A stretch of 64,000 bases of DNA, from the NCBI GenBank assembly GCA_963719085.1, contig CAVRAL010000004.1, forward strand, positions 320,001 through 384,000, read 5' to 3'. The notes below the pieces were generated by a model. It was not told the origin of the DNA and did not search any database. It was given only the letters and a program-made list of their open reading frames with translations. A program made the translations under genes and the position numbers. The stretch comes from a candidate division FCPU426 bacterium (GTDB lineage: Bacteria > Oederibacteriota > Muellerivitia > Muellerivitales > Muellerivitaceae). Below, piece after piece: positions 2,205-14,438 of the stretch. Position 1 is the first letter of the stretch; every line of letters begins with the position of its first letter.

Positions 2205-2939
2205 TTAAGCCTGGCGCCCGCCCGTTTTGATGAAACGATGGGCCTTTTCAAAAAGAATTTGACGGTCGTAATCCAGGGGGATCACGTGATCGGAGCGGTC
2301 CAGATAAATCAGGTGCTTGAGCTTCGATCCCAAGGCTTGGTAGACCAAGCCGCCATTGAGGGGCGGCACCATGGAATCTTTTCGCCCTTGAAGCACCAAG
2401 GCCGGCGCCGTGACATAAGGCAAATCCTCTTCCACGTGGCGCATCAATTTTTTCAGCTCGTAAAGACTTTTCGTCGCCAAATAGGGATAGGTCTCGTGCT
2501 TCGGCGCCGAAGAGTCCAATACTCCCCCGGCCAAATTAGACGTGCGCCATTGCAGAAACCTGAAAAAGGCGATGCCGTTAAACCGAAAATCAGGAATGCG
2601 GATCGGGGCCGCCATGGAAATCACCCCGGCCACTGGAAAATGCGCCGCCAAATGCAGCGCCTGGTCGGCGCCCATGGAAAGGCCCGCCAAATAAATTTTA
2701 GAGCAGCGGCGCCGTAAAACTTCTAAGGCTTCCCGCGCGCTTTGGGACCAATCCTGCCAGCGGGTCTTCGCCAAGTCTTGAGCCGACGTGCCATGACCCT
2801 TGAGCCAAGGCCCCAGCGTGGAATAACCCTTGGCGGCCAAATAATCGCCCAGCGGTTTTACCTCCGACGGCGCTCCGCTGAGTCCATGGAGCAGCAGAAT
2901 CCCGGTTTTTCCCTTGCGGGCCTCAAATCCAACGCGCAT
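2205..2939 (-). CDS. Carboxylesterase / alpha-beta hydrolase
   Basis: LLHGLSG oxyanion loop, GLSMG nucleophile elbow, GRKDSMV Asp, SDH His. Confidence 0.9.
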   Translation of the reverse strand: MRVGFEARKGKTGILLLHGLSGAPSEVKPLGDYLAAKGYSTLGPWLKGHGTSAQDLAKTRWQDWSQSAREALEVLRRRCSKIYLAGLSMGADQALHLAAHFPVAGVISMAAPIRIPDFRFNGIAFFRFLQWRTSNLAGGVLDSSAPKHETYPYLATKSLYELKKLMRHVEEDLPYVTAPALVLQGRKDSMVPPLNGGLVYQALGSKLKHLIYLDRSDHVIPLDYDRQILFEKAHRFIKTGGRQA

Positions 2940-2984
2940 CGGATGCTCCTTGTCTTAAGAACTGCCAGCAAAACCTTTTTACAT

Positions 2985-3058
2985 TGATGGACGCAGATGA
3001 ACGCAGATTTTCCGGAACATTCATTCGAACTTAAATCTGTGTTCATCTGCGTCCATCA
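2985..3058. repeat. Intergenic inverted repeat, family A
   Basis: TGATGGACGCAGATGAACGCAGATTT (2985-3010) pairs with AAATCTGTGTTCATCTGCGTCCATCA (3033-3058): 26 bp with one G-U. Confidence 0.9.
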
Positions 3059-3089
3059 TTGTTCAATGAATTTGAGTTTTATTGGGGCC

Positions 3090-3674
3090 TTAGCCTTTCG
3101 CGGCGGCGGCCGCGTCCATTTTCTCGATCTGCTGGATCGTGAATAAAATCTCGTCGTCCGTGGGCCGGTCCTGCGGATTTTGTCCCACGTACTTGAAACG
3201 GATTATTTTGGTGGGATCGATAATGACGACCGCGGGGCGGCTGATGTCTTTCCCATCGTGGCCCTGGGGATGCCGCACGCCGAAGGCGTCGATCAGCTTT
3301 AATTGGGTATCGGCCAAAAGCGGGAAAGGAAACCGCCATTGCTCATTGAAGGCCGCCGCGTCCTCGACCGGATCCACGCTCACGGCCGCGAGGGCCGCAT
3401 GCAGGGTTGAGAATTTCTCGAAATCATCCTTCAGGTTTAAAAGCTGGTTTTGGCAGGCCGAGCACCAATGGCCCCGGTAAAAAACGAGCACCAAATACCA
3501 TCCGGGTTGAAGATCGGTGGATTTAAAGAAACGGCCGTCGCAGTTCTCCAGGGTAAAATCCGGGCATTTTTGCCCCAGCCCCACCACGCCGGCGGTCGAG
3601 GAGACCGAGGAACTGGGGCCGCAACCCGCCAGTAATAGTGAGACCGCCGCCGCGAAAACGAGGGTACGCTTCAT
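3090..3674 (-). CDS. Peroxiredoxin-like (AhpC/TSA, redoxin) lipoprotein
   Basis: Lipobox LLAGC; PDFTL, FYRGHWCSAC (CxxC), AVSVD, FPLLAD, RPAVVIID. Confidence 0.85.
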   Translation of the reverse strand: MKRTLVFAAAVSLLLAGCGPSSSVSSTAGVVGLGQKCPDFTLENCDGRFFKSTDLQPGWYLVLVFYRGHWCSACQNQLLNLKDDFEKFSTLHAALAAVSVDPVEDAAAFNEQWRFPFPLLADTQLKLIDAFGVRHPQGHDGKDISRPAVVIIDPTKIIRFKYVGQNPQDRPTDDEILFTIQQIEKMDAAAAAKG

Positions 3675-3783
3675 AAGGATAAAACCTTTTAAGTCGGGAT
3701 TAAAAACGCGAAAGGATTTGGAAGCCCCGCGCTTTCTTCAAAACCTATTCTATCGCATCCCGGCGTTAAATTTTCAAAATCCG

Positions 3784-3813
3784 TTGACAAACCCCGGAAG
3801 CCCTCCCAATAAT
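3784..3813 (+). promoter_or_regulatory. Putative sigma70 promoter of leader peptide 1 (TTGACA-N18-AATAAT)
   Basis: Perfect -35 at 3784-3789, AATAAT at 3808-3813; same architecture as 8653-8682. Confidence 0.65.
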
Positions 3814-3849
3814 ATTTTTCGTTTCCGATCCGCTTCCAAGGCGCGTGGC

Positions 3850-4137
3850 ATGTTCCGATTCCGAAAAATTTCATTTTTCATCGCCTTGCTGGGCCTCACC
3901 GCCTTCGCGTCCCTTTCGGTGGCCGAAAACTTCCATCACCACGGCGACCTGGAAAGCCACGATGACTGCGCCATGTGCAGCTGGCAACAGGTCGATTCCA
4001 AGGCCACCGTCTCCGCCGCTCCCCCACAACTGATTCCGCTATTCGCGGTTTTGGTTTTAGAGATTGTTTCTTTCCCTTGGTTTTCCTTCCGGATGGTGCA
4101 AGCTTCCGGCAGGTCCCCCCCGGTTTCCATCGCTTAA
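3850..4137 (+). CDS. DUF2946/CruR-like metal-sensing leader peptide 1 (95 aa; HHH, CxxC, C-terminal GRSPP)
   Basis: C-terminal part of track ORF 3517..4137 from ATG 3850: hydrophobic N-terminus, ENFHHH, CAMC, GRSPP; colinear paralog at 8711..8998. Confidence 0.85.
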   Translation: MFRFRKISFFIALLGLTAFASLSVAENFHHHGDLESHDDCAMCSWQQVDSKATVSAAPPQLIPLFAVLVLEIVSFPWFSFRMVQASGRSPPVSIA

Positions 4138-4280
4138 ACTTCAATTGAGCGGGAAAACCGGGAACAGGTCTTTTTTAACCCTTTCCGTCTTTTCGTTTTA
4201 AAACCCTTAAAAGCTTGTTCCTGTTTCTTTTCCCCCGGAAACCACGCTTGCGCGTGGTTTCTAAATCCCTTTTTAATTTT
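4119..4280 (+). promoter_or_regulatory. Putative attenuator: alternative stems plus a 10-bp hairpin followed by T-rich tracts
   Basis: 4145-4162 can pair with 4119-4137, while the overlapping 4151-4168 can instead pair with 4214-4234; perfect hairpin GAAACCACGC-TTGC-GCGTGGTTTC at 4238-4261. Confidence 0.6.
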
Positions 4281-4355
4281 TAAATCGACCAAGACCGGCC
4301 TCGAGGTTCAAAAACCTTAAGGTTTGGCCCTAAATCCTATTTGGAGGATATTTCA

Positions 4356-6785
4356 ATGAGATTCGTTTCCCGATGGTTTTGGCTTTTGTTTCTGTGTTGG
4401 GGTTTTAATGTAAGCGTCGCCCGCGCGACAGTTGACGGCGCCATTTCAGGCACCGTTTTGGATGACAAAGGCGTCGCGGTGCCCAACGCGAAGGTGACGA
4501 TTACGGGCAACGGCACTGAAAAGGACGTGGTGTCTTCAGCGACAGGAACTTTCCAGGCCTTTCCCTTAACCCTGGGGGATTACCAGGTTCAAGTTCAAGC
4601 GGACGGCTTTAGCCCCTATCAAGAAACCGTCGCGGTTTCGGGCGGCACCTCGTCCCTGGCGGTGGTCTTGCTGCCATCCGGTGAGATGCAAATGACGGTG
4701 AAAGCCAAACATCTGGTCTCCTCCGCGCCCGACAGCAGCCGGGCGTTAAATAAAGATGATATCGCCCAACTGCCGGGAGGCTCCACGACGAACCTTCCGA
4801 AATTGCTTTATACCACCACAGCCGGATTCGTGGAGGGTGACTTCGGGCAAGTCTTTACCCGGGGCAACCACGCCAACTTGCAATACCAGATCGACGGCAT
4901 CCAATTGCCCGATTCGGTGGGCGGCTCCTTTGGGGAAGCCTTCACCCCGGTCAACATCGACCACATGGAAATTTTAACCGGCGGCCTCCAGCCGGAGTTC
5001 GGTTCCCGCATGGCCGGCGTGGTGAATATCGTCACCAAGTCGGGCGCGATCACTCCCGGCGGTGAAATCGGCCTCAGCTACGGTTCCTACAACCAGACCG
5101 CCGATTACGCCAGCTACGGAGGGTCTGACGCCTCCGGAGCTTTTCATTACTACCTCTCGGCCAATTCCTTTTCCACCGACCGCGGGTTGGACACTCCCGC
5201 GCCGGCCGACATCAACGCCGACCAGAATGGCGGGAGCGAACAGGCGGTCCATGACAAAAGCTACGGCACGGACGCTTTCTTGAAGCTTGATTGGGTGGCG
5301 GACAACTCCAACAAGTTTGACCTGATCGCCTTCAGCGAGGACAAATTTTTCCAAATCCCGGACTATCCCAGTTCCTTTGATCCGGGCGGACCCAACTTCC
5401 AGTATTTCCTCAGTTCGGGGGATATCTACGGGAACGTCGTGAACTACGTTCCTTCCACCACCAACGACACCCAAGCCGAAGCCAACAAGTACATTGAATT
5501 AGCTTGGCGGCATAACTTCGGCGACGATTCTTTCCTTCAAATAGCGCCCTATTGGAAGGAATCCAACATCACCTTCACCAACGATCCGCAGGACGATCTG
5601 GCGGCGGCCTATAACACGCAGATCCAGGATCAGAACTCGGGGACGCCGTTCAGTATTTCCTCTTTCTCCGAGGACCGCACCAGCGACAACTATGGGACGC
5701 AGGCGGATTACACCTGGCACGCGGACGCCAACAACCTGGTCAAGATCGGGGGACAGGCCCTTTTGACGCAATCTTCCGGCCCCGTTTCCGTTACGGAAGC
5801 CAATTTTGACGGAACCCCGGGAGATCCGATCACGGTGGATGGCAGTGGGGATAATTCTACCGATGTGGGTTACCAAGAAGGCCTGTACGTCCAGGACGAA
5901 ATGGATCTGGCCAAGGGGCTGGTCTTAAGCGGGGGCGTGCGCTTTGACGCCATCCAATTTACCTTCCCGGGAGCGAATTCCAACGACAGCATGCTGGAAC
6001 CCCGGGTCGGCCTCAGCCTGCTTCCGGCCGAAGGTACCAAGATCCATTTCTTTTACGGCAAGATGTTCATGCCGGCCCCGCCGGAGGATCTGCGGGACAC
6101 CTTCGTCAATTTGGGCCAAGGGAACAGTTTGACGCCTTACGACCTCAAGGCCGAGAAGGACGATTATTTCGAAACCGGAATCGCCCAGCAGGTGGACAAC
6201 CAACTGTTCACCTTGAACGCTTACTACAAATACGCGTTGAATATGCTGGATGAAAACCAGCTTTTGAACACGGCTATCGCCCAACCCTTCAACTTCGCCT
6301 CCGGCTACGCCTATGGCCTTGAATTTTCCATGCGCGGGGAACTGGCCAAGGACTGGACTGATTTCGCCAATTATTCCTACGAGATCGCTAAGGGGCAGGG
6401 AATCAGCGGCGGTATCTTCGCCTTCCCCCCGGGGACCGATTTCGAACCTGGCGTCTACCAGTTCCTGGACCATTGCCAAATCCACACAGCCAACGCCGGA
6501 TTGACCTATAACCCCGGTGATATTTGGCTCACCGCCGAAGGTCTTTTTGGAGGGGGTTTGAGCACCGGCCCGGACAACACCTTGAGACTGCCGTCCCATT
6601 TCACCATGGACGCCACGGTGGGTTACGCCTTTCAGAAAGACAGCGGCCTATCAGGGATGAAAGCCAGCCTGGACGCGCTGAATCTCTTTGATAACCCCTA
6701 CACCATCTTCGTCGCCAATGGTTACAACGGGAATCATTACGAAAACGGACGGGAATTCATCTTCCGTTTGGCCAAGGTGTTCTAA
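4356..6785 (+). CDS. TonB-dependent outer-membrane receptor with N-terminal carboxypeptidase-regulatory-like domain
   Basis: Signal peptide, ISGTVLDDKG..VPNAKV domain, plug motifs (YQIDG, ILTGG..PEFG....GVVNIVTK), NLFD and terminal Phe; RBS GGAGG before ATG 4356. Confidence 0.93.
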   Translation: MRFVSRWFWLLFLCWGFNVSVARATVDGAISGTVLDDKGVAVPNAKVTITGNGTEKDVVSSATGTFQAFPLTLGDYQVQVQADGFSPYQETVAVSGGTSSLAVVLLPSGEMQMTVKAKHLVSSAPDSSRALNKDDIAQLPGGSTTNLPKLLYTTTAGFVEGDFGQVFTRGNHANLQYQIDGIQLPDSVGGSFGEAFTPVNIDHMEILTGGLQPEFGSRMAGVVNIVTKSGAITPGGEIGLSYGSYNQTADYASYGGSDASGAFHYYLSANSFSTDRGLDTPAPADINADQNGGSEQAVHDKSYGTDAFLKLDWVADNSNKFDLIAFSEDKFFQIPDYPSSFDPGGPNFQYFLSSGDIYGNVVNYVPSTTNDTQAEANKYIELAWRHNFGDDSFLQIAPYWKESNITFTNDPQDDLAAAYNTQIQDQNSGTPFSISSFSEDRTSDNYGTQADYTWHADANNLVKIGGQALLTQSSGPVSVTEANFDGTPGDPITVDGSGDNSTDVGYQEGLYVQDEMDLAKGLVLSGGVRFDAIQFTFPGANSNDSMLEPRVGLSLLPAEGTKIHFFYGKMFMPAPPEDLRDTFVNLGQGNSLTPYDLKAEKDDYFETGIAQQVDNQLFTLNAYYKYALNMLDENQLLNTAIAQPFNFASGYAYGLEFSMRGELAKDWTDFANYSYEIAKGQGISGGIFAFPPGTDFEPGVYQFLDHCQIHTANAGLTYNPGDIWLTAEGLFGGGLSTGPDNTLRLPSHFTMDATVGYAFQKDSGLSGMKASLDALNLFDNPYTIFVANGYNGNHYENGREFIFRLAKVF

Positions 6786-9037: not shown

Positions 9038-10144
9038 ATGAGAATTCATCGTTTTTATTTTATTTTGGCCTCCCTTTTGGGAGTGGCTTTCGCCGGGGGG
9101 GCCCAGGCCCAAACCCGGTCGATTATCTCCAACTTGGCCAATCCGGCCATCGGCATGAGCGCGTTGTTTTTGGGCCAAGCCGCGCCGAACATCGCCGCCC
9201 CCTACGGCATTAAATTCCAGGAAGCCGAATTGAGCGTCATCTCCACCGTGGATCCTTATTGGACCCTGGCCGCCAATTTGGTGTTTGAGGGCGATCCTAA
9301 AACCGGCATTCCCGACTCGGTGTCGGCGGAAGAAGCCTACGCCACCACCGACGCCATCCCGGGAATCACGTTCAAGATCGGGGAAATCCGGGCGGATTTC
9401 GGAAAACACGGACTGCTTCACACCCACGCTTTTCCCTTCATCCAAGCCCCCATCATCATGGGCAACAGCGTGGGCCAGGAAGGCTTCAAGGACGCGGGCG
9501 TGGAAGGCGCTTGGCTGACGCCCCTGCCTTGGTACTGCGAACTGACCCTGGGCGCCTACGGATCGGTGGCGGCCTCGGGCGACCATCCGCTGAATTTCGC
9601 CGACGCCTCGCACGACAATATTCCCTACCTGATCCATCTCAAAAATCTTTTCGACGTGGATGACGACACCACGATGGAATTAGGCGGATCGGCCCTGACC
9701 GGCATGGGTGACGACGGCCTGCACCACGCCGTTTATGGCGCGGACCTGACTTTCCGCAATGTGCCGCTTCAACAATCCAACCAACGGGGATGGATTCTGC
9801 AGGGCGAGTACATCAAAAAAGTTTCCTTTGATGACAACGCCTATAACCAGGAAGCGGACGGCTGGTATACCTCGTTCCAATATCGCTTGGCCCAGGAATG
9901 GTGGACCGGCATCCGGATGGAAGAGTGCTATAACGCCACACCGGACCTGGATGTGGACTCCACGGAAAATTCACTCGCCGGCAACGTCAAGCGCGCCTCG
10001 TTCAATGTGGCTTGGCTGGCGTCGGAATTTTCGCAGGTGAAGGCCGAATATAGCTACGCCCAAAACGACGCGGGCCAGGGCGATAACCGGGTGATGCTGC
10101 AGTTTAACTATGTGATCGGATTCCATCCGCCCCACTCTTATTAG
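9038..10144 (+). CDS. Outer-membrane porin-like protein associated with metal uptake
   Basis: Signal peptide, amphipathic beta strands, His motifs LHTHAFPF and C-terminal IGFHPPHSY; lies before ABC substrate-binding and permease genes. Confidence 0.7.
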   Translation: MRIHRFYFILASLLGVAFAGGAQAQTRSIISNLANPAIGMSALFLGQAAPNIAAPYGIKFQEAELSVISTVDPYWTLAANLVFEGDPKTGIPDSVSAEEAYATTDAIPGITFKIGEIRADFGKHGLLHTHAFPFIQAPIIMGNSVGQEGFKDAGVEGAWLTPLPWYCELTLGAYGSVAASGDHPLNFADASHDNIPYLIHLKNLFDVDDDTTMELGGSALTGMGDDGLHHAVYGADLTFRNVPLQQSNQRGWILQGEYIKKVSFDDNAYNQEADGWYTSFQYRLAQEWWTGIRMEECYNATPDLDVDSTENSLAGNVKRASFNVAWLASEFSQVKAEYSYAQNDAGQGDNRVMLQFNYVIGFHPPHSY

Positions 10145-10195
10145 GACGGAGCGGATTCAAAAAATTTGTGGTTTAAAAAATCAAGGAGAAAACTC

Positions 10196-11110
10196 ATGAA
10201 ACGTCTAAGCGCTTTTTTAGTGCTGCTCTTCGGTTGCTTGATCGCCTTGCCGGCTTTCGCGGATTTGAAAGTGGCCACCTCCCTTTCAGATTTGGCGTCG
10301 GTGGCCCAATTCGTGGGAGGCAAACACGTCACGGCCATCAGCCTTTGCAAAGGTTATGAGGACCCGCATTTTGTCCCGGCCAAACCCAGTTTGATGAAGG
10401 CCATCCAGGACGCCGATGTATTCGTGTCCGTGGGGCTGGAGTTGGACGGGGGCTGGCTGCCCTTGGTCATCCCCGGGAGCCGCAATCCCAAAATTCAGCC
10501 GGGCGCCGAAGGCTTCGTTGACGCCTCGGAAGGCATTGATGTTTTGGATAAGCCCGTCGGCACCGTCAGCCGGGCGGAGGGGGACATCCATCCTTTGGGC
10601 AACCCGCATTACTATGGCGACCCGAAAAATCTGGAAATCGTGGCGGATCATTTGACCCAAATTTTTTCGGATTTGGACCCGGCCAACGCGGCGGACTACG
10701 CGGCCAACGATAAGGCCTTCGACGCGAAAATGGACGCGTCGATCAAGGGCTGGGAGGCTCAGCTGGCTCCTTATAAGGGAAATTCGCTCGTGTCCTACCA
10801 CGAGAATTTCAAGTATTTCACCAACCGGTTTGGCTTGAAGGTTTTCGGAACCGTGGAGTCCAAGCCCGGCATTCCGCCGAGCCCCCGATACCTATCGGAC
10901 ACGGCCGACGCGATGAAAACCGCCGGAGTGAAGGTCGTTATCTACCAGCCTTACTATGACGCCGACGAGGCCAAGCAATTAGCGTTGAAAGCCGGGGCCA
11001 CCGCCTATGAGATTCCTAATGAAGTGGGCGGCGTTCCGGAGGCCAAGGACGTTTTCTCGAAATTCGACTTCATCGTGTCGACTTTAGTTCAAGCCTACGG
11101 GGGAAAATAA
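10196..11110 (+). CDS. Metal (Zn/Mn) ABC transporter substrate-binding protein, ZnuA/TroA family
   Basis: EDPHF, GNPHYY, LDPANA..Y..N, SYHENF.YF, KPGIPPSP motifs; ATG 10196 after AAGGAG. Confidence 0.92.
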   Translation: MKRLSAFLVLLFGCLIALPAFADLKVATSLSDLASVAQFVGGKHVTAISLCKGYEDPHFVPAKPSLMKAIQDADVFVSVGLELDGGWLPLVIPGSRNPKIQPGAEGFVDASEGIDVLDKPVGTVSRAEGDIHPLGNPHYYGDPKNLEIVADHLTQIFSDLDPANAADYAANDKAFDAKMDASIKGWEAQLAPYKGNSLVSYHENFKYFTNRFGLKVFGTVESKPGIPPSPRYLSDTADAMKTAGVKVVIYQPYYDADEAKQLALKAGATAYEIPNEVGGVPEAKDVFSKFDFIVSTLVQAYGGK

Positions 11111-11115
11111 GCGCC

Positions 11116-11940
11116 ATGTCCAACTTTATCGAGGTGATGGGTCTTCCGATTTTGGCCTGCTTGCTCCTCGGCCTCATCCTGCCCTCCTTGGGCCAGCATG
11201 TGCTGGCCCGGGGAGTCATTTTCGTGGACTTGGCCTTGGCTCAAATAGCGGCGCTGGGACAAAGCGTGGCCTTTTTGTTGGGGGCCGACCCCCATGATCC
11301 GGCCACCTACTATTGGTCCCTGGGATTCACCCTATTGGGCGCGGCCCTTTTTAGTTTTTTGTGGGACCGCAACCATTCGGTTTTTCAGGAGGCCTTTATC
11401 GGAATCGCCTTCTCCCTGGCGACGGCGGCCACCCTGTTGGTCTTGTCCAATTCCCCCCACGGCGCCGAGCACGTGCAGGGAACCTTGAGCGGGGAAAGCC
11501 TGGGCTGGGTCGCTTGGAAAGACGTGGCGCTGATGGCGGTCATTTACGCCCTCGTCGGCCTGTTTCTTTTTTTCAACCGCCAGACCTTGGCGCTTTGTTC
11601 CGCCGACCCCAAAGAGGCCCAAAAGCAGGGACTGTCCCTGAAACTTTGGGATTTCCTTTTTTACGCGGGCTTCGGGCTGGTCGTGACCGACGCGGTTCGG
11701 GTTTCGGGCGTGCTGGCGGTCTTTTCGTTTCTGATCGTGCCGATCGTCTGTTCGACCCTTTTGGGCATGAAAGGAAGACCGCGGCTTTACCTGGCCTGGG
11801 GATTGGCGTGGCTGGCTTCGATCATCGGGTCCGGGTTTTCCTATTGGAAGGACTGGCCCATGGGCGCCACCATCGTGTGCGTATTCGGGCTATCGGTGAT
11901 TGTTATCTCGGCCTTCACAAGAATGAGAAACGTCGAATAG
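11116..11940 (+). CDS. Metal ABC transporter permease, ZnuB/MntB family
   Basis: G.HVLARGVIFVDLALAQ, EAFIG, GVLAVFSFLIVP, WPMGATIV. Confidence 0.9.
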   Translation: MSNFIEVMGLPILACLLLGLILPSLGQHVLARGVIFVDLALAQIAALGQSVAFLLGADPHDPATYYWSLGFTLLGAALFSFLWDRNHSVFQEAFIGIAFSLATAATLLVLSNSPHGAEHVQGTLSGESLGWVAWKDVALMAVIYALVGLFLFFNRQTLALCSADPKEAQKQGLSLKLWDFLFYAGFGLVVTDAVRVSGVLAVFSFLIVPIVCSTLLGMKGRPRLYLAWGLAWLASIIGSGFSYWKDWPMGATIVCVFGLSVIVISAFTRMRNVE

Positions 11941-11948
11941 GCAAAAGC

Positions 11949-12094
11949 TTGAAACACAGAGTGACACGGAGTTACACAGGGCGAGGATTAAAATTATTTT
12001 TGATTAAGCCATTAATTTTAAACATTGGGGGAACCTAAAGCTTTGGTTCTCAAAAAGATTTACTCTGTGTAACTTTGTTACCTCCGTGTTTCAA
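11949..12094. repeat. Intergenic inverted repeat, family B, between convergent genes
   Basis: TTGAAACACAGAGTGACACGGAGTTACACAGGG (11949-11981) vs CTCTGTGTAACTTTGTTACCTCCGTGTTTCAA (12063-12094); related copy at 30564-30653. Confidence 0.8.
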
Positions 12095-12099
12095 AAGCC

Positions 12100-12381
12100 T
12101 TAATATTTTGCCTTCGCCTTGGTCTTCTTCTTTTTGGCCGGCGCTTTTTTGCGACGCTTGGCGGCCTTTTCCGCTTCCGACGGTGGCAGGGCTAACTGCG
12201 GCTTGGCGGTTTCGGGCTTGTCGGCCGCTTTCGGCTCTTCTTTAACGCTTTGGCCGCTGGAAGCCTTTTTAAACTCGTCCATGAACTGGCCGATGGCCTT
12301 GCCCAATCCCGGAAGCTTGTCTTTTCCAAAAAAGAAAAGGGCCACGACCAAAATGAGCAGTATTTCTTCAATGCGTCCCAT
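12100..12381 (-). CDS. tatA: Twin-arginine translocase TatA/E subunit
   Basis: MG..EILLILVVALFFFG..KLP.LGKAIG....EFKKA. Confidence 0.85.
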   Translation of the reverse strand: MGRIEEILLILVVALFFFGKDKLPGLGKAIGQFMDEFKKASSGQSVKEEPKAADKPETAKPQLALPPSEAEKAAKRRKKAPAKKKKTKAKAKY

Positions 12382-12482
12382 GCGAAAAACTCCTGAGTTT
12401 TAAGATGGGGCCATTCTATTCAGTCTTCGGCCACTTCGCCAGTGGAATGGATGTTTCCTTCCCATCCTTTTGACGAAACCTA

Positions 12483-12884
12483 TTAAAGCCCTAAAAATAA
12501 TTTCAATCGACGGCGAATTTCATCTCTTACTTCCTGGAAGCTTTTTAGCTTTTCTTCATCCGTCGTGGCTCCCTTTCCAGGGTCGGGCAGCGGCCAATGA
12601 ATTCTTTCAGCCTTCCCTAAGAAAACTGGACATTCTTCCTCGGCGCAAAGGGTGATAACCGTATCCACCGTCGCCGGGTCGATCTCGGCCACGGACTTGG
12701 AAGTCTGGCCGGAAATATCGATTCCGATTTCGGCCAGGGCCTTGATTGATAAAGGATTCACGAAAGACGGCTTGGAACCGGCGCTTTGAATCAGGCCTTT
12801 ATCGCCCAAAAGATGCTTGGCGATGCCTTCCGCCATCTGGCTGCGGCCCGAATTGGCCACACAAAGAAAAAGAATTTTTTTCAA
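12483..12884 (-). CDS. arsC: Arsenate reductase, thioredoxin-coupled LMW-PTPase fold
   Basis: [17 protein letters not shown] (CX5R), SAGS, VITLC....CP resolving cysteines, HWPLPDP. Confidence 0.9.
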
Positions 12885-12887
12885 GGC

Positions 12888-13571
12888 CTACTCCTTGTTG
12901 TTTTTCAAGTTGGCGGGCGCCAGCCGGATCGACTCATAAAACAACGCGGCAAGAACCGCCCCAAGACAAGGCCCTACCACATAAATCCACGTCCCATTCA
13001 AATGTCCCTCAAAGACCGCGGGGGCCAGGGACCGTGCCGGATTCATGGAAGCCCCCGTGACCGGCCCACCCACCCAGGCCGCTAGCATGACAGTTCCGCC
13101 AATCGCCGCGCCCGCCATGGTGCCGACCGCGCGGGTATCCGTGGCCACCGCCACAATCACGAACATCAGAAAAAAGGTCAGGATCATTTCCCAGCTCAAA
13201 GCTTGCCCATTCGGCACGGCGGGAATGGTGGCTCCATAAGAAACACCGGATGGAAGAATCATTTTGAGGATGCCGATAGCGGCAAAAGCCCCGATGAGTT
13301 GAGCGGCCCAATAGGCCAAAACCTGCTCAAAGGGAAAGTGGCGGGCTACGGCGAAGGCCAAGGTCACGGCGGGATTGAAGTGGGCTCCCGAAATATGCCC
13401 CACCGCGTAAATCATGACCGCCACCGCCAACCCAAAAATAACCGGTACGACCGCCTGCGAAAGGGTCCCCGGAAACCGCTCCGCGACCATGAGGCTTCCG
13501 CATCCGGCGAAGACGAGGGTAAAGGTCCCCATGGCCTCGGCCAGGGACTTCTTAAGAAGGATATTCTTCAT
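12888..13571 (-). CDS. MIP family aquaporin/aquaglyceroporin (probable arsenite channel)
   Basis: Two NPA motifs (ISGAHFNPAVT, GASMNPARS); lies immediately upstream of arsC; start 13571 or 13577. Confidence 0.92.
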   Translation of the reverse strand: MKNILLKKSLAEAMGTFTLVFAGCGSLMVAERFPGTLSQAVVPVIFGLAVAVMIYAVGHISGAHFNPAVTLAFAVARHFPFEQVLAYWAAQLIGAFAAIGILKMILPSGVSYGATIPAVPNGQALSWEMILTFFLMFVIVAVATDTRAVGTMAGAAIGGTVMLAAWVGGPVTGASMNPARSLAPAVFEGHLNGTWIYVVGPCLGAVLAALFYESIRLAPANLKNNKE

Positions 13572-13607
13572 CTCCAACTAGCTCGCGTTTGCAAGTTGAT
13601 CCCCCTA

Positions 13608-13982
13608 TTACTTTTTCTTCCCCACCCACTCGCCCAAAACCGACTTCAATTTCTTTTTCATGCCCTGAAGTTCCTGGATTTTCCCCTCAAACTCATCGAT
13701 CTTGGCGGTGAACAAGTCCACCGTCAGGTCGCAACAGGGGCCCAGACCCTTGTCCCCGCAACAGGTGATTTTCTTTATTTCTTTGAGCGTCAGCCCCATG
13801 GCTTGGGCTTTGCGGATGAACTCCAATTGGTCCACCGCTTCCTTGGGATAAATCCGAAAGCCGCCTTCGCTCCGGGAAGGCTCGTTCAGCAGCCCCTCTT
13901 TTTCGTAATAGCGGATCGTATCGATGGACGTCCCGCTTTTTTGGGCCACTTGACCGATTTGAAGGAATGGATTTTTTTTCAT
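13608..13982 (-). CDS. MerR family transcriptional regulator
   Basis: IGQVAQKSG.SIDTIRYYEKEGLL...RSEGGFRIY...FIRKAQAMG.TL.EI; coiled-coil C-terminus. Confidence 0.93.
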   Translation of the reverse strand: MKKNPFLQIGQVAQKSGTSIDTIRYYEKEGLLNEPSRSEGGFRIYPKEAVDQLEFIRKAQAMGLTLKEIKKITCCGDKGLGPCCDLTVDLFTAKIDEFEGKIQELQGMKKKLKSVLGEWVGKKK

Positions 13983-14000
13983 GGCGTCAGCTCCCAAACG

Positions 14001-14032
14001 AGTATAGACCCTGGAGTATACTCCAGAGTCAA
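14001..14032 (-). promoter_or_regulatory. MerR-type promoter/operator: TTGACT-N20-TATACT with the palindrome CTGGAGTATACTCCAG
   Basis: Extended 20-bp spacer holding a perfect 16-bp palindrome (14011-14026) just upstream of the merR-family gene. Confidence 0.9.
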
Positions 14033-14078
14033 GGACGGTTTTTAACGGGGTTTGTTTTATCGCGGAAGAAACAGCCGG

Positions 14079-14438
14079 TCAGGACTTGCGGTAATGCCGG
14101 ATAAGTTCGACCAGCTGCTGGTTAAAAGCCGCCCGGGGCAAGGCCTGGTCGGCTCCCGCTTCCTTGGCGTCTTGAAGCAGGTCGGCCCTCAGTGAATTGC
14201 CAAAAGCCACCAAAGGAATCTTCGCGGTGGCCGGATTGTGTTTGAGCCGCTCAATCACGGACGGCGCGTCCAGGGTAGCGATGGCCAGATCCACCAGCAA
14301 AAGATCGGGCGTCATTTCCTGCAGGGCGGCGAAGGCCGCGTCCTCGTCGGATAAAAAAAGGCCCTCCCGCCCCTCTTGCCCGGCGGCCTTCTCGATTTGC
14401 TCTTGAAGCGCCGAGTCGGCGGTCAAAACCAGAATCAA
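14079..14438 (-). CDS. Single-domain response regulator receiver (atypical)
   Basis: PDLLLVDL, KIPLVAFG, EAGAD; the conserved Lys-Pro is replaced by PR. Confidence 0.75.
   Translation of the reverse strand: MILVLTADSALQEQIEKAAGQEGREGLFLSDEDAAFAALQEMTPDLLLVDLAIATLDAPSVIERLKHNPATAKIPLVAFGNSLRADLLQDAKEAGADQALPRAAFNQQLVELIRHYRKS

Follow-up and report, generated by a model that had tools for sequence, protein, structure and literature searches.

A short MerR-family protein as the candidate As(III)-sensing activator of its own arsenate-detoxification operon

In Gram-positive mer operons, merR heads the operon that its product activates, and in Sinorhizobium meliloti the aqpS-arsC pair detoxifies arsenate by means of a major intrinsic protein (MIP) channel and an arsenate reductase. 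Both arrangements have a counterpart in a three-gene operon within the DNA analysed here, a stretch of 64,000 nucleotides from a candidate division FCPU426 bacterium (C4:320001-384000; the window), whose genes encode a MerR-family regulator, an MIP and the arsenate reductase ArsC. As in the mer operon of Bacillus megaterium, the regulator gene comes first behind its own operator; the genes downstream, however, are arsenic-related. As in aqpS-arsC, the MIP gene lies next to that of an arsenate reductase in a genome that carries no ArsB or Acr3 pump, but the channel is NIP-like rather than GlpF-type, the ArsC is of the thioredoxin-coupled low-molecular-weight phosphatase (LMWP) type and the regulator is of the MerR type. 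With ZntR and the heavy-metal MerR subfamily, the regulator shares the winged helix-turn-helix (HTH) and long coiled-coil fold, whereas its targets are ars genes and not those of a P-type ATPase or mer proteins. With the ArsR/SmtB repressors it has the first-gene position in common and, in sister genomes, the same sets of downstream genes; the folds are unrelated, and the opposite logic is expected, activation through DNA distortion instead of repressor release.

On the basis of the comparative evidence presented below, we consider it probable that these three genes form an arsenate-detoxification operon activated by the product of its own first gene, a predicted As(III)-sensing activator of the MerR family. 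With somewhat less assurance, we hold it moderately likely that this protein represents the first arsenic sensor built on a MerR scaffold, which would use an intrasubunit three-thiolate clamp at the α4-α5 hinge, would descend from a mercury-type ancestor whose C-terminal Cys-Pro loop was lost and would have displaced ArsR, in one family, from ars operons left otherwise unaltered. The operon comprises the following features:

13608..13982, minus strand: gene of a short-form MerR-family regulator (124 amino acids; Pfam PF13411, PF00376 and PF09278)
12888..13577, minus strand: gene of a NIP-like (AqpN-type) MIP (229 amino acids; PF00230 at 196 bits)
12483..12884, minus strand: gene of a thioredoxin-coupled, LMWP-type ArsC (133 amino acids; PF01451, nearest NCBIfam model TIGR02691)
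14001..14032, minus strand: MerR/ZntR-class promoter with operator, assigned by sequence reading, likeness to PzntA and related loci
13731..13763, minus strand: codons of C74-C75 (13763..13758) through C83-C84 (13736..13731), at the α4-α5 hinge, where As(III) is proposed to be bound by thiolates

The merR-like, MIP and arsC genes follow one another co-directionally in this order, with 30 bp between the first two and 3 bp from the MIP stop to the arsC start. A GGGAG ribosome-binding site precedes the ATG at 13982, which was therefore taken as the regulator start; a longer, TTG-started open reading frame would begin within the promoter. On the minus strand, the -35 hexamer TTGACT (14032..14027) and the -10 hexamer TATACT (14006..14001) are separated by a 20-bp spacer (14026..14007) that contains a perfect 16-bp palindrome, CTGGAGTATACTCCAG, at 14026..14011. 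An over-long spacer of 19-20 bp carrying a dyad operator, the trait of MerR-family promoters, is thus present. When a 45-nucleotide stretch around the promoter was compared with complete Escherichia coli genomes, 33 nucleotides of it proved 85% identical to a single place in 5416 of the 5426 genomes, and in the single example genome inspected this place lies 36 bp upstream of zntA. In the alignment of the window promoter with PzntA, the -35 hexamer (TTGACT), the 20-bp spacing and the dyad arms (CTGGAG..CTCCAG) are all shared, and the -10 hexamers are near-identical (TAT-CT in common). In view of this alignment, the DNA side of the operon is, as far as its sequence can tell, a textbook ZntR/MerR-class promoter. 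Scanning for standard sigma-70 promoters, with spacers of 16-18 bp, revealed none other on the minus strand in 12050..14250, and a terminator scan was uninformative for the ends of the operon, as it returned weak terminator-like hairpins within genes only (7 found against 4.6 expected). Reading of the sequence and its open reading frames agrees with Pfam on what had originally been predicted for this locus, namely a co-directional merR-family gene, aquaporin and arsC behind a MerR-type promoter. The accompanying statement that the window holds no ArsR gene is borne out as well: the four HTH_5 matches of the genome (C1:1261944, C4:279135, C4:253900 and C5:203419) all fall outside C4:320001-384000.

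The regulator has a MerR-type winged HTH (PF13411 at 67.9 bits and PF00376 at 57.8 bits, both over their cut-offs) and a long C-terminal dimerisation helix (PF09278 at 49.7 bits; residues 85-120 in an AlphaFold2 model), and it gives no match to the ArsR/SmtB-type domain PF01022 (HTH_5). Its scores with the NCBIfam equivalogs for ZntR, CadR/PbrR, MerR and CueR, 80-91 bits, stay below the cut-offs of 143-168 bits, and NmlR and SoxR are weaker matches. Among solved structures, B. megaterium MerR (4ua1) is its best match (E 1.6e-21). C83 aligns with Cys79 of that protein ('eakC') at the start of the dimerisation helix, a column that is invariant over 65 aligned sequences, and so the regulator has the cysteine at the N terminus of this helix in common with the heavy-metal MerR proteins. 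It differs from them at the other end. The protein stops 11 residues past the core that aligns with the solved MerR and CadR structures, and it lacks the C-terminal metal-binding loop, with neither cysteine nor histidine there; Cys114 and Cys123, which we take to be the loop cysteines of B. megaterium MerR, are without counterpart. In the metal-sensing MerR proteins compared here, the site is completed by loop cysteines that the partner subunit contributes from the distal end of its helix; the protein of the window has none of these, as had been claimed. Instead, the window regulator carries an extra cysteine 7-8 residues upstream of C83 and a vicinal partner. Its translation confirms C74, C75, C83 and C84, in ITCCGDKGLGPCCD, as the only cysteines.

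In the AlphaFold2 model, which was built with 65 homologues (mean predicted local distance difference test (pLDDT) score 85.3) and has the usual MerR layout, α4 spans residues 66-78, the loop 79-84 and α5 85-120. These helix boundaries place C74 and C75 at the end of α4 and C83 and C84 at the junction of loop and α5. Among the short forms, defined as proteins with C-x7-CC and no C-terminal cysteine, C75, C83 and C84 are invariant at all 25 distinct loci, within the motif C-G-x3-L-x-P-C-C, and the proteins terminate in W-V-x-K-K-K. C74 is found at 16 of the 25. The conserved unit is therefore C-x7-CC, that is, three thiols rather than two vicinal pairs, and the original prediction, which had rested on two such pairs, holds for C75, C83 and C84 but not throughout for C74. 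Three conserved cysteines are what an As-S3 site of the kind found in As(III)-sensing metalloregulators would call for at the sequence level. The available part of a 2025 study of ArsR (PMC11868830) states that the characterised As(III)-responsive ArsR proteins all use a three-cysteine site (Cys32/34/37 in R773, Cys95/96/102 in AfArsR, Cys15/16/55' in CgArsR), that two of the three classical types consist of a vicinal pair plus a third cysteine, and that sites with two cysteines are selective for MAs(III). The short forms thus resemble the ArsR sites of Types 2 and 3 described there in having three cysteines, two of them vicinal.

A protein search gave 120 homologues among the matches listed, and the C-x7-CC core occurs in nearly all of those listed at an identity of at least 59%. 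The close relatives in the genome collection are metagenome-assembled genomes of Candidatus Omnitrophota. A homologue (E <= 1e-20) is present in 23 of 99 genomes of the phylum, the window's own included; by family, the split is 21 of 30 in the window's family, one of one in a neighbouring family and none of 67 in the other 21 families. In a profile search of 1.84 billion representative proteins, just two clusters at 50% identity contained the short form. By these sequence comparisons, the short-form regulators are a small, lineage-restricted clade.

The original prediction had proposed that homologues with paired cysteines be checked for synteny with ars genes. When about 5 kb on either side of each match were surveyed and the same-strand downstream genes annotated, all 25 short-form loci, from 23 genomes, proved to be followed directly by ars genes that include one for an LMWP-type ArsC. 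A channel or pump for As(III) is likewise encoded at each of the 25, an MIP at 17 and Acr3 at 8; one of the Acr3 cases was counted by reading the locus, where a gene for a DGC-domain protein breaks the automatic gene chain. A VOC protein of the ArsI/CadI type occurs at eight loci and ArsM at five. Family scores with NCBIfam and Pfam models reach 373 bits for acr3, 332 bits for the arsenite methyltransferase and 142 bits for ArsI_CadI_VOC. The combination of ars genes varies, the regulator always comes first, and no metal-cation transporter or mer gene follows at any of the 25 loci. The promoter arrangement is shared more widely: TTGA[CT]N, a 20-bp spacer bearing a dyad, and TANNNT lie upstream of the regulator at 30 of 31 related loci, and the 31st differs solely in its -10 hexamer, AATTCT.

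Several observations were made beside this survey. The DGC-domain protein just mentioned (PF08859, 87 bits; L124:6736-7110) is encoded between arsM and acr3 of a MerR-headed operon, and a similar gene follows acr3 at loci L142 and L151. Two of the representative proteins, P0121 (269 amino acids) and P0124 (268 amino acids), consist of two entire MerR units joined in tandem, each including an HTH and a helix; they resemble single-chain pseudo-dimers, and their two halves differ in their sets of cysteines. At the Terriglobia loci L014 and L022 (about 2800-5340), genes resembling those of ArsM, ArsC and MIP are followed immediately, in the same orientation, by a MerR homologue; that of L014, the copy translated, has one cysteine. 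These loci may represent another, independent association of MerR with ars genes.

The window's genome contains a second such cassette at C4:476466-478348 (L083:5989-7874), 143 kb from the first, in which a regulator 82% identical to that of the window is followed by an ArsI-type VOC protein, an MIP and ArsC. Since the operators of the two cassettes are nearly identical and differ at one dyad position (CTGGAG vs CTGAAG), the two regulators may cross-activate. Genes for a methyltransferase dependent on S-adenosylmethionine and for ChrA flank the second cassette. These two MerR-headed cassettes are the sole ars genes of the genome, and neither has an ArsR-family gene within 53 kb.

The relation to ArsR was examined at acr3, which is present in 57 of the 99 genomes of the phylum. 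Among 30 acr3 loci from other families, taken with flanks of 1.5 kb, 14 have an ArsR-family (HTH_5) gene that ends at most 100 bp from acr3 (440 bp upstream in one case), three have a DUF134 gene, and at 13 no regulator was recognised or the flank was too short. Within the window's own family, five genomes possess acr3 and give no match to the short-form regulator. Four of these carry the gene order ArsR-arsM-LMWP-acr3-(arsC)-GCAxxG; the contig of the fifth begins 576 bp upstream of acr3 and is uninformative. The structural proteins of the ArsR-headed operons are 69-87% identical to references from MerR-headed operons such as L003, their ArsR proteins bear the classical CVC motif, and no MerR-type promoter motif occurs at the ArsR-headed acr3 loci of the family. 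The strongest argument for arsenic sensing is this: on orthologous operons in sister genera, the MerR protein fills the slot of the known As(III) sensor. Together with the cysteine triad and the linkage to ars genes, each seen at 25 of 25 loci, the swap lends comparative-genomic support to the earlier proposal of a candidate arsenic-sensing MerR activator. Of the refuting conditions set with that proposal, unconserved cysteines and homologues unlinked to ars genes were examined by these comparisons, and neither refuted it.

Two further regulator arrangements were seen at ars operons. ArsR in cis to a MerR-headed operon was considered and set aside, as it occurs at only two of 31 loci (L115 and L116), about 3 kb upstream with other genes between, and was treated there as a separate unit. 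In other Omnitrophota families, a DUF134 protein (PF02001, 80-91 bits) is encoded directly upstream of acr3 or arsM and may be a third type of regulator for ars operons in this phylum. The DUF134 genes that occupy the ArsR slot are:

L135:2492-2863, DUF134 gene
L136:1131-1475, DUF134 gene
L141:3326-3661, DUF134 gene

The best solved relative of the MIP is the plant NIP2;1 (7nl4, E 2e-55, vs about 1e-28 for AqpZ). Both NPA motifs are visible in the alignment with 7nl4, which supports a NIP-like, AqpN-type assignment by sequence, and the aromatic/arginine positions read off the same alignment are F-A-A-R. FAAR-type bacterial NIP-like channels conduct arsenite, and the MIP is likely to be the exit channel for As(OH)3. 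The accessible text of PMC10716587 reports the F-A-A-R signature for moss NIPs and derives NIPs from bacterial aqpN genes. ArsC finds its best NCBIfam match in arsC_pI258_fam (TIGR02691), and in the alignment with Bacillus subtilis ArsC (1jl3, E 3.4e-30) the cysteine of the CX5R P-loop and both downstream cysteines are matched. Four residues, not six, separate its second and third catalytic cysteines, a two-residue gap relative to 1jl3. Neither ArsB nor Acr3 was found in the window's genome, which is 99% complete. The assignments of ArsC and of a NIP-like channel in a genome of this content make it likely, by analogy with aqpS-arsC, that ArsC reduces arsenate and that As(OH)3 then leaves the cell down its gradient through the channel. 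The comparison with aqpS-arsC had been drawn originally and stands in outline, the genome lacking ArsB and Acr3; it does not extend to the channel, which is NIP-like and not GlpF-like.

We propose the following mechanism for control of this pathway. A regulator dimer bound to the palindrome within the over-long 20-bp spacer would keep the promoter poorly active, as is the behaviour of the family. As(III), and probably also methylarsenite (MAs(III)) and Sb(III), would be held by three thiolates of one subunit, those of C75, where α4 ends, and of C83 and C84, where α5 begins; C74 could serve as an additional, dispensable ligand. Binding of As(III) would tighten the seven-residue hinge loop, the shift of the hinge would re-orient the two DNA-binding domains, and the ensuing distortion of the DNA could realign the promoter as in MerR, ZntR and CueR.

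Three other effectors were weighed against As(III). The first, that the regulator responds to MAs(III) or another organoarsenical instead of inorganic As(III), seems to us improbable, although it fares best of the three. ArsI-type C-As lyase genes at eight of 25 loci and arsM at five speak for it, as do the ArsI-type gene in the paralogous cassette of the same genome and the fact that two thiols suffice for MAs(III), as the portion of PMC11868830 at hand describes. The invariant cysteines, however, number three and not two, and according to the same portion of that study it is on losing the third cysteine that ArsR sensors turn MAs(III)-selective. The window's cassette, moreover, consists of ArsC and a channel only, an inorganic-arsenic pathway. 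A sensor that answers to As(III) as well as MAs(III), as ArArsR is reported to do, is the likelier reading than one confined to MAs(III).

Slightly less probable still is a sensor of soft metal cations (Hg, Cd, Zn or Pb), with the ars genes as part of a general regulon for thiophilic metals. The regulator's best family matches are indeed ZntR, CadR/PbrR, MerR and CueR (80-91 bits), its best solved relative is the Hg-responsive MerR 4ua1, its promoter is nearly PzntA, and merT or merC accompanies the members of its sister clade. Yet every one of the family scores is under the equivalog cut-offs of 143-168 bits, and the protein lacks the cysteines of the C-terminal loop with which the sites for Hg, Zn, Cd and Cu are completed. 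In addition, the short forms are followed by ars genes at 25 of 25 loci and never by a cation transporter or mer gene, and orthologous operons elsewhere are headed by ArsR.

The sister clade consists of five longer relatives of 145-155 amino acids, 56-62% identical, which retain the CC pair, for the most part together with the upstream cysteine, and carry VCPQIE as an additional C-terminal motif. They adjoin a MerT-HMA fusion and a zf_CopZ protein, or MerC, in the following clusters, which they head:

L005:5001-8109, long-form mer-type cluster
L006:4953-6955, long-form mer-type cluster
L007:4932-6663, long-form mer-type cluster
L004:1149-2414, long-form mer-type cluster
L008:4929-6280, long-form mer-type cluster

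These clusters are compact, with either the MerT-HMA fusion and a zf_CopZ/BFD-like protein or MerC and a small CxxC protein; no recognisable MerA is encoded in the stretches of them that were seen, and they are frequently preceded closely by a redoxin gene. Maximum-likelihood analysis set the short and long forms jointly apart from 14 other heavy-metal MerR proteins (support 99/97) and put all 25 short forms to one side of a branch supported at 93/92; the bootstrap of this tree had not settled completely. The simplest history is that a mercury-type ancestor lost its C-terminal loop, although this direction is one we infer, the tree being unrooted on this point.

Least probable of all, and hardly to be expected, is a thiol-redox or electrophile sensor of the NmlR/AdhR type that perceives arsenic indirectly as thiol stress through a disulfide or S-adduct: the regulator's weaker family matches include NmlR and SoxR, disulfides can arise between vicinal or nearby cysteines and some of the operons encode C_GCAxxG_C_C redox proteins, but the operons are consistently arsenic-specific and free of general oxidative-stress genes, the invariant C-G-x3-L-x-P-C-C spacing resembles a pre-organised chelate loop, and the swap partner is an ArsR of the CVC type, a direct As(III) binder (site type described in the part of PMC11868830 available).

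Direct sensing of As(III) by the short-form regulator thus remains the preferred reading, and the following points weigh against it. The AlphaFold2 confidence is lowest around the cysteine loop, with a block pLDDT of 70-75 for residues 71-90, and a three-thiolate site would bind Hg(II), Cd(II) and Zn(II) in vitro too. The mer-linked long forms have essentially the same operator as the short forms, so that DNA recognition says nothing on the effector. The 23 genomes are close kin (one family and one genome of a neighbouring family), so that part of the ars synteny reflects common descent instead of independent events. For ArsC, the NCBIfam scores fall short of the equivalog cut-offs (119 bits against 174 for arsC_pI258_fam), and the four ArsR-family genes elsewhere in the genome could act in trans. 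Among sequencing runs, five of DNA type from two studies contain the stretch and no RNA run does, a result that bears on expression in neither direction.

A MerR-family sensor for arsenic or antimony was not found in full-text literature searches, which cover subscription journals poorly, and within that scope the original view that such a specificity is not known to be characterised is upheld. A 2021 review of the MerR family contains no word beginning arsen-, metalloid or antimon-; the portion available of a 2024 review of metallostasis mentions arsenic only with ArsR, and that of the 2025 ArsR paper (PMC11868830) describes only ArsR-type arsenic sensors. Two candidates from the literature were rejected. 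In the AntR paper (PMC12641948), 'MerR' occurs solely in the reference list, and MerR2 of Pseudomonas pseudoalcaligenes, which counts arsR among its targets (PMC10832572), is a mercury regulator acting on arsR and not an arsenic sensor. The MerR scaffold and the promoter mechanism are known; the predicted effector class and the location of the putative site would be new.

A MerR-type arsenic activator would thus bring to this family a new effector and a new site location, in the hinge and within one subunit. Control by arsenic would here be positive, through activation by DNA distortion, and not derepression, and the natural swap from ArsR to MerR on the same operons permits the two modes to be compared on identical targets. 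If the proposal is correct, the hinge clamp would constitute a minimal portable allosteric module for the engineering of MerR proteins and of low-background arsenic biosensors. MerR-type promoters are tight and highly inducible, and biosensors whose selectivity and background are unlike those of ArsR-based devices could result. Annotation pipelines name such regulators Zn, Cu or Hg regulators, which masks ars regulation in uncultured phyla.

Elsewhere in the window, the plus strand at 9038-11940, upstream of a tatA-like gene, encodes a secreted protein of 368 amino acids, a protein of 314 amino acids and a membrane protein of 274 amino acids, which by the appearance of their sequences alone resemble a metal ABC uptake system of the ZnuA/ZnuB type.

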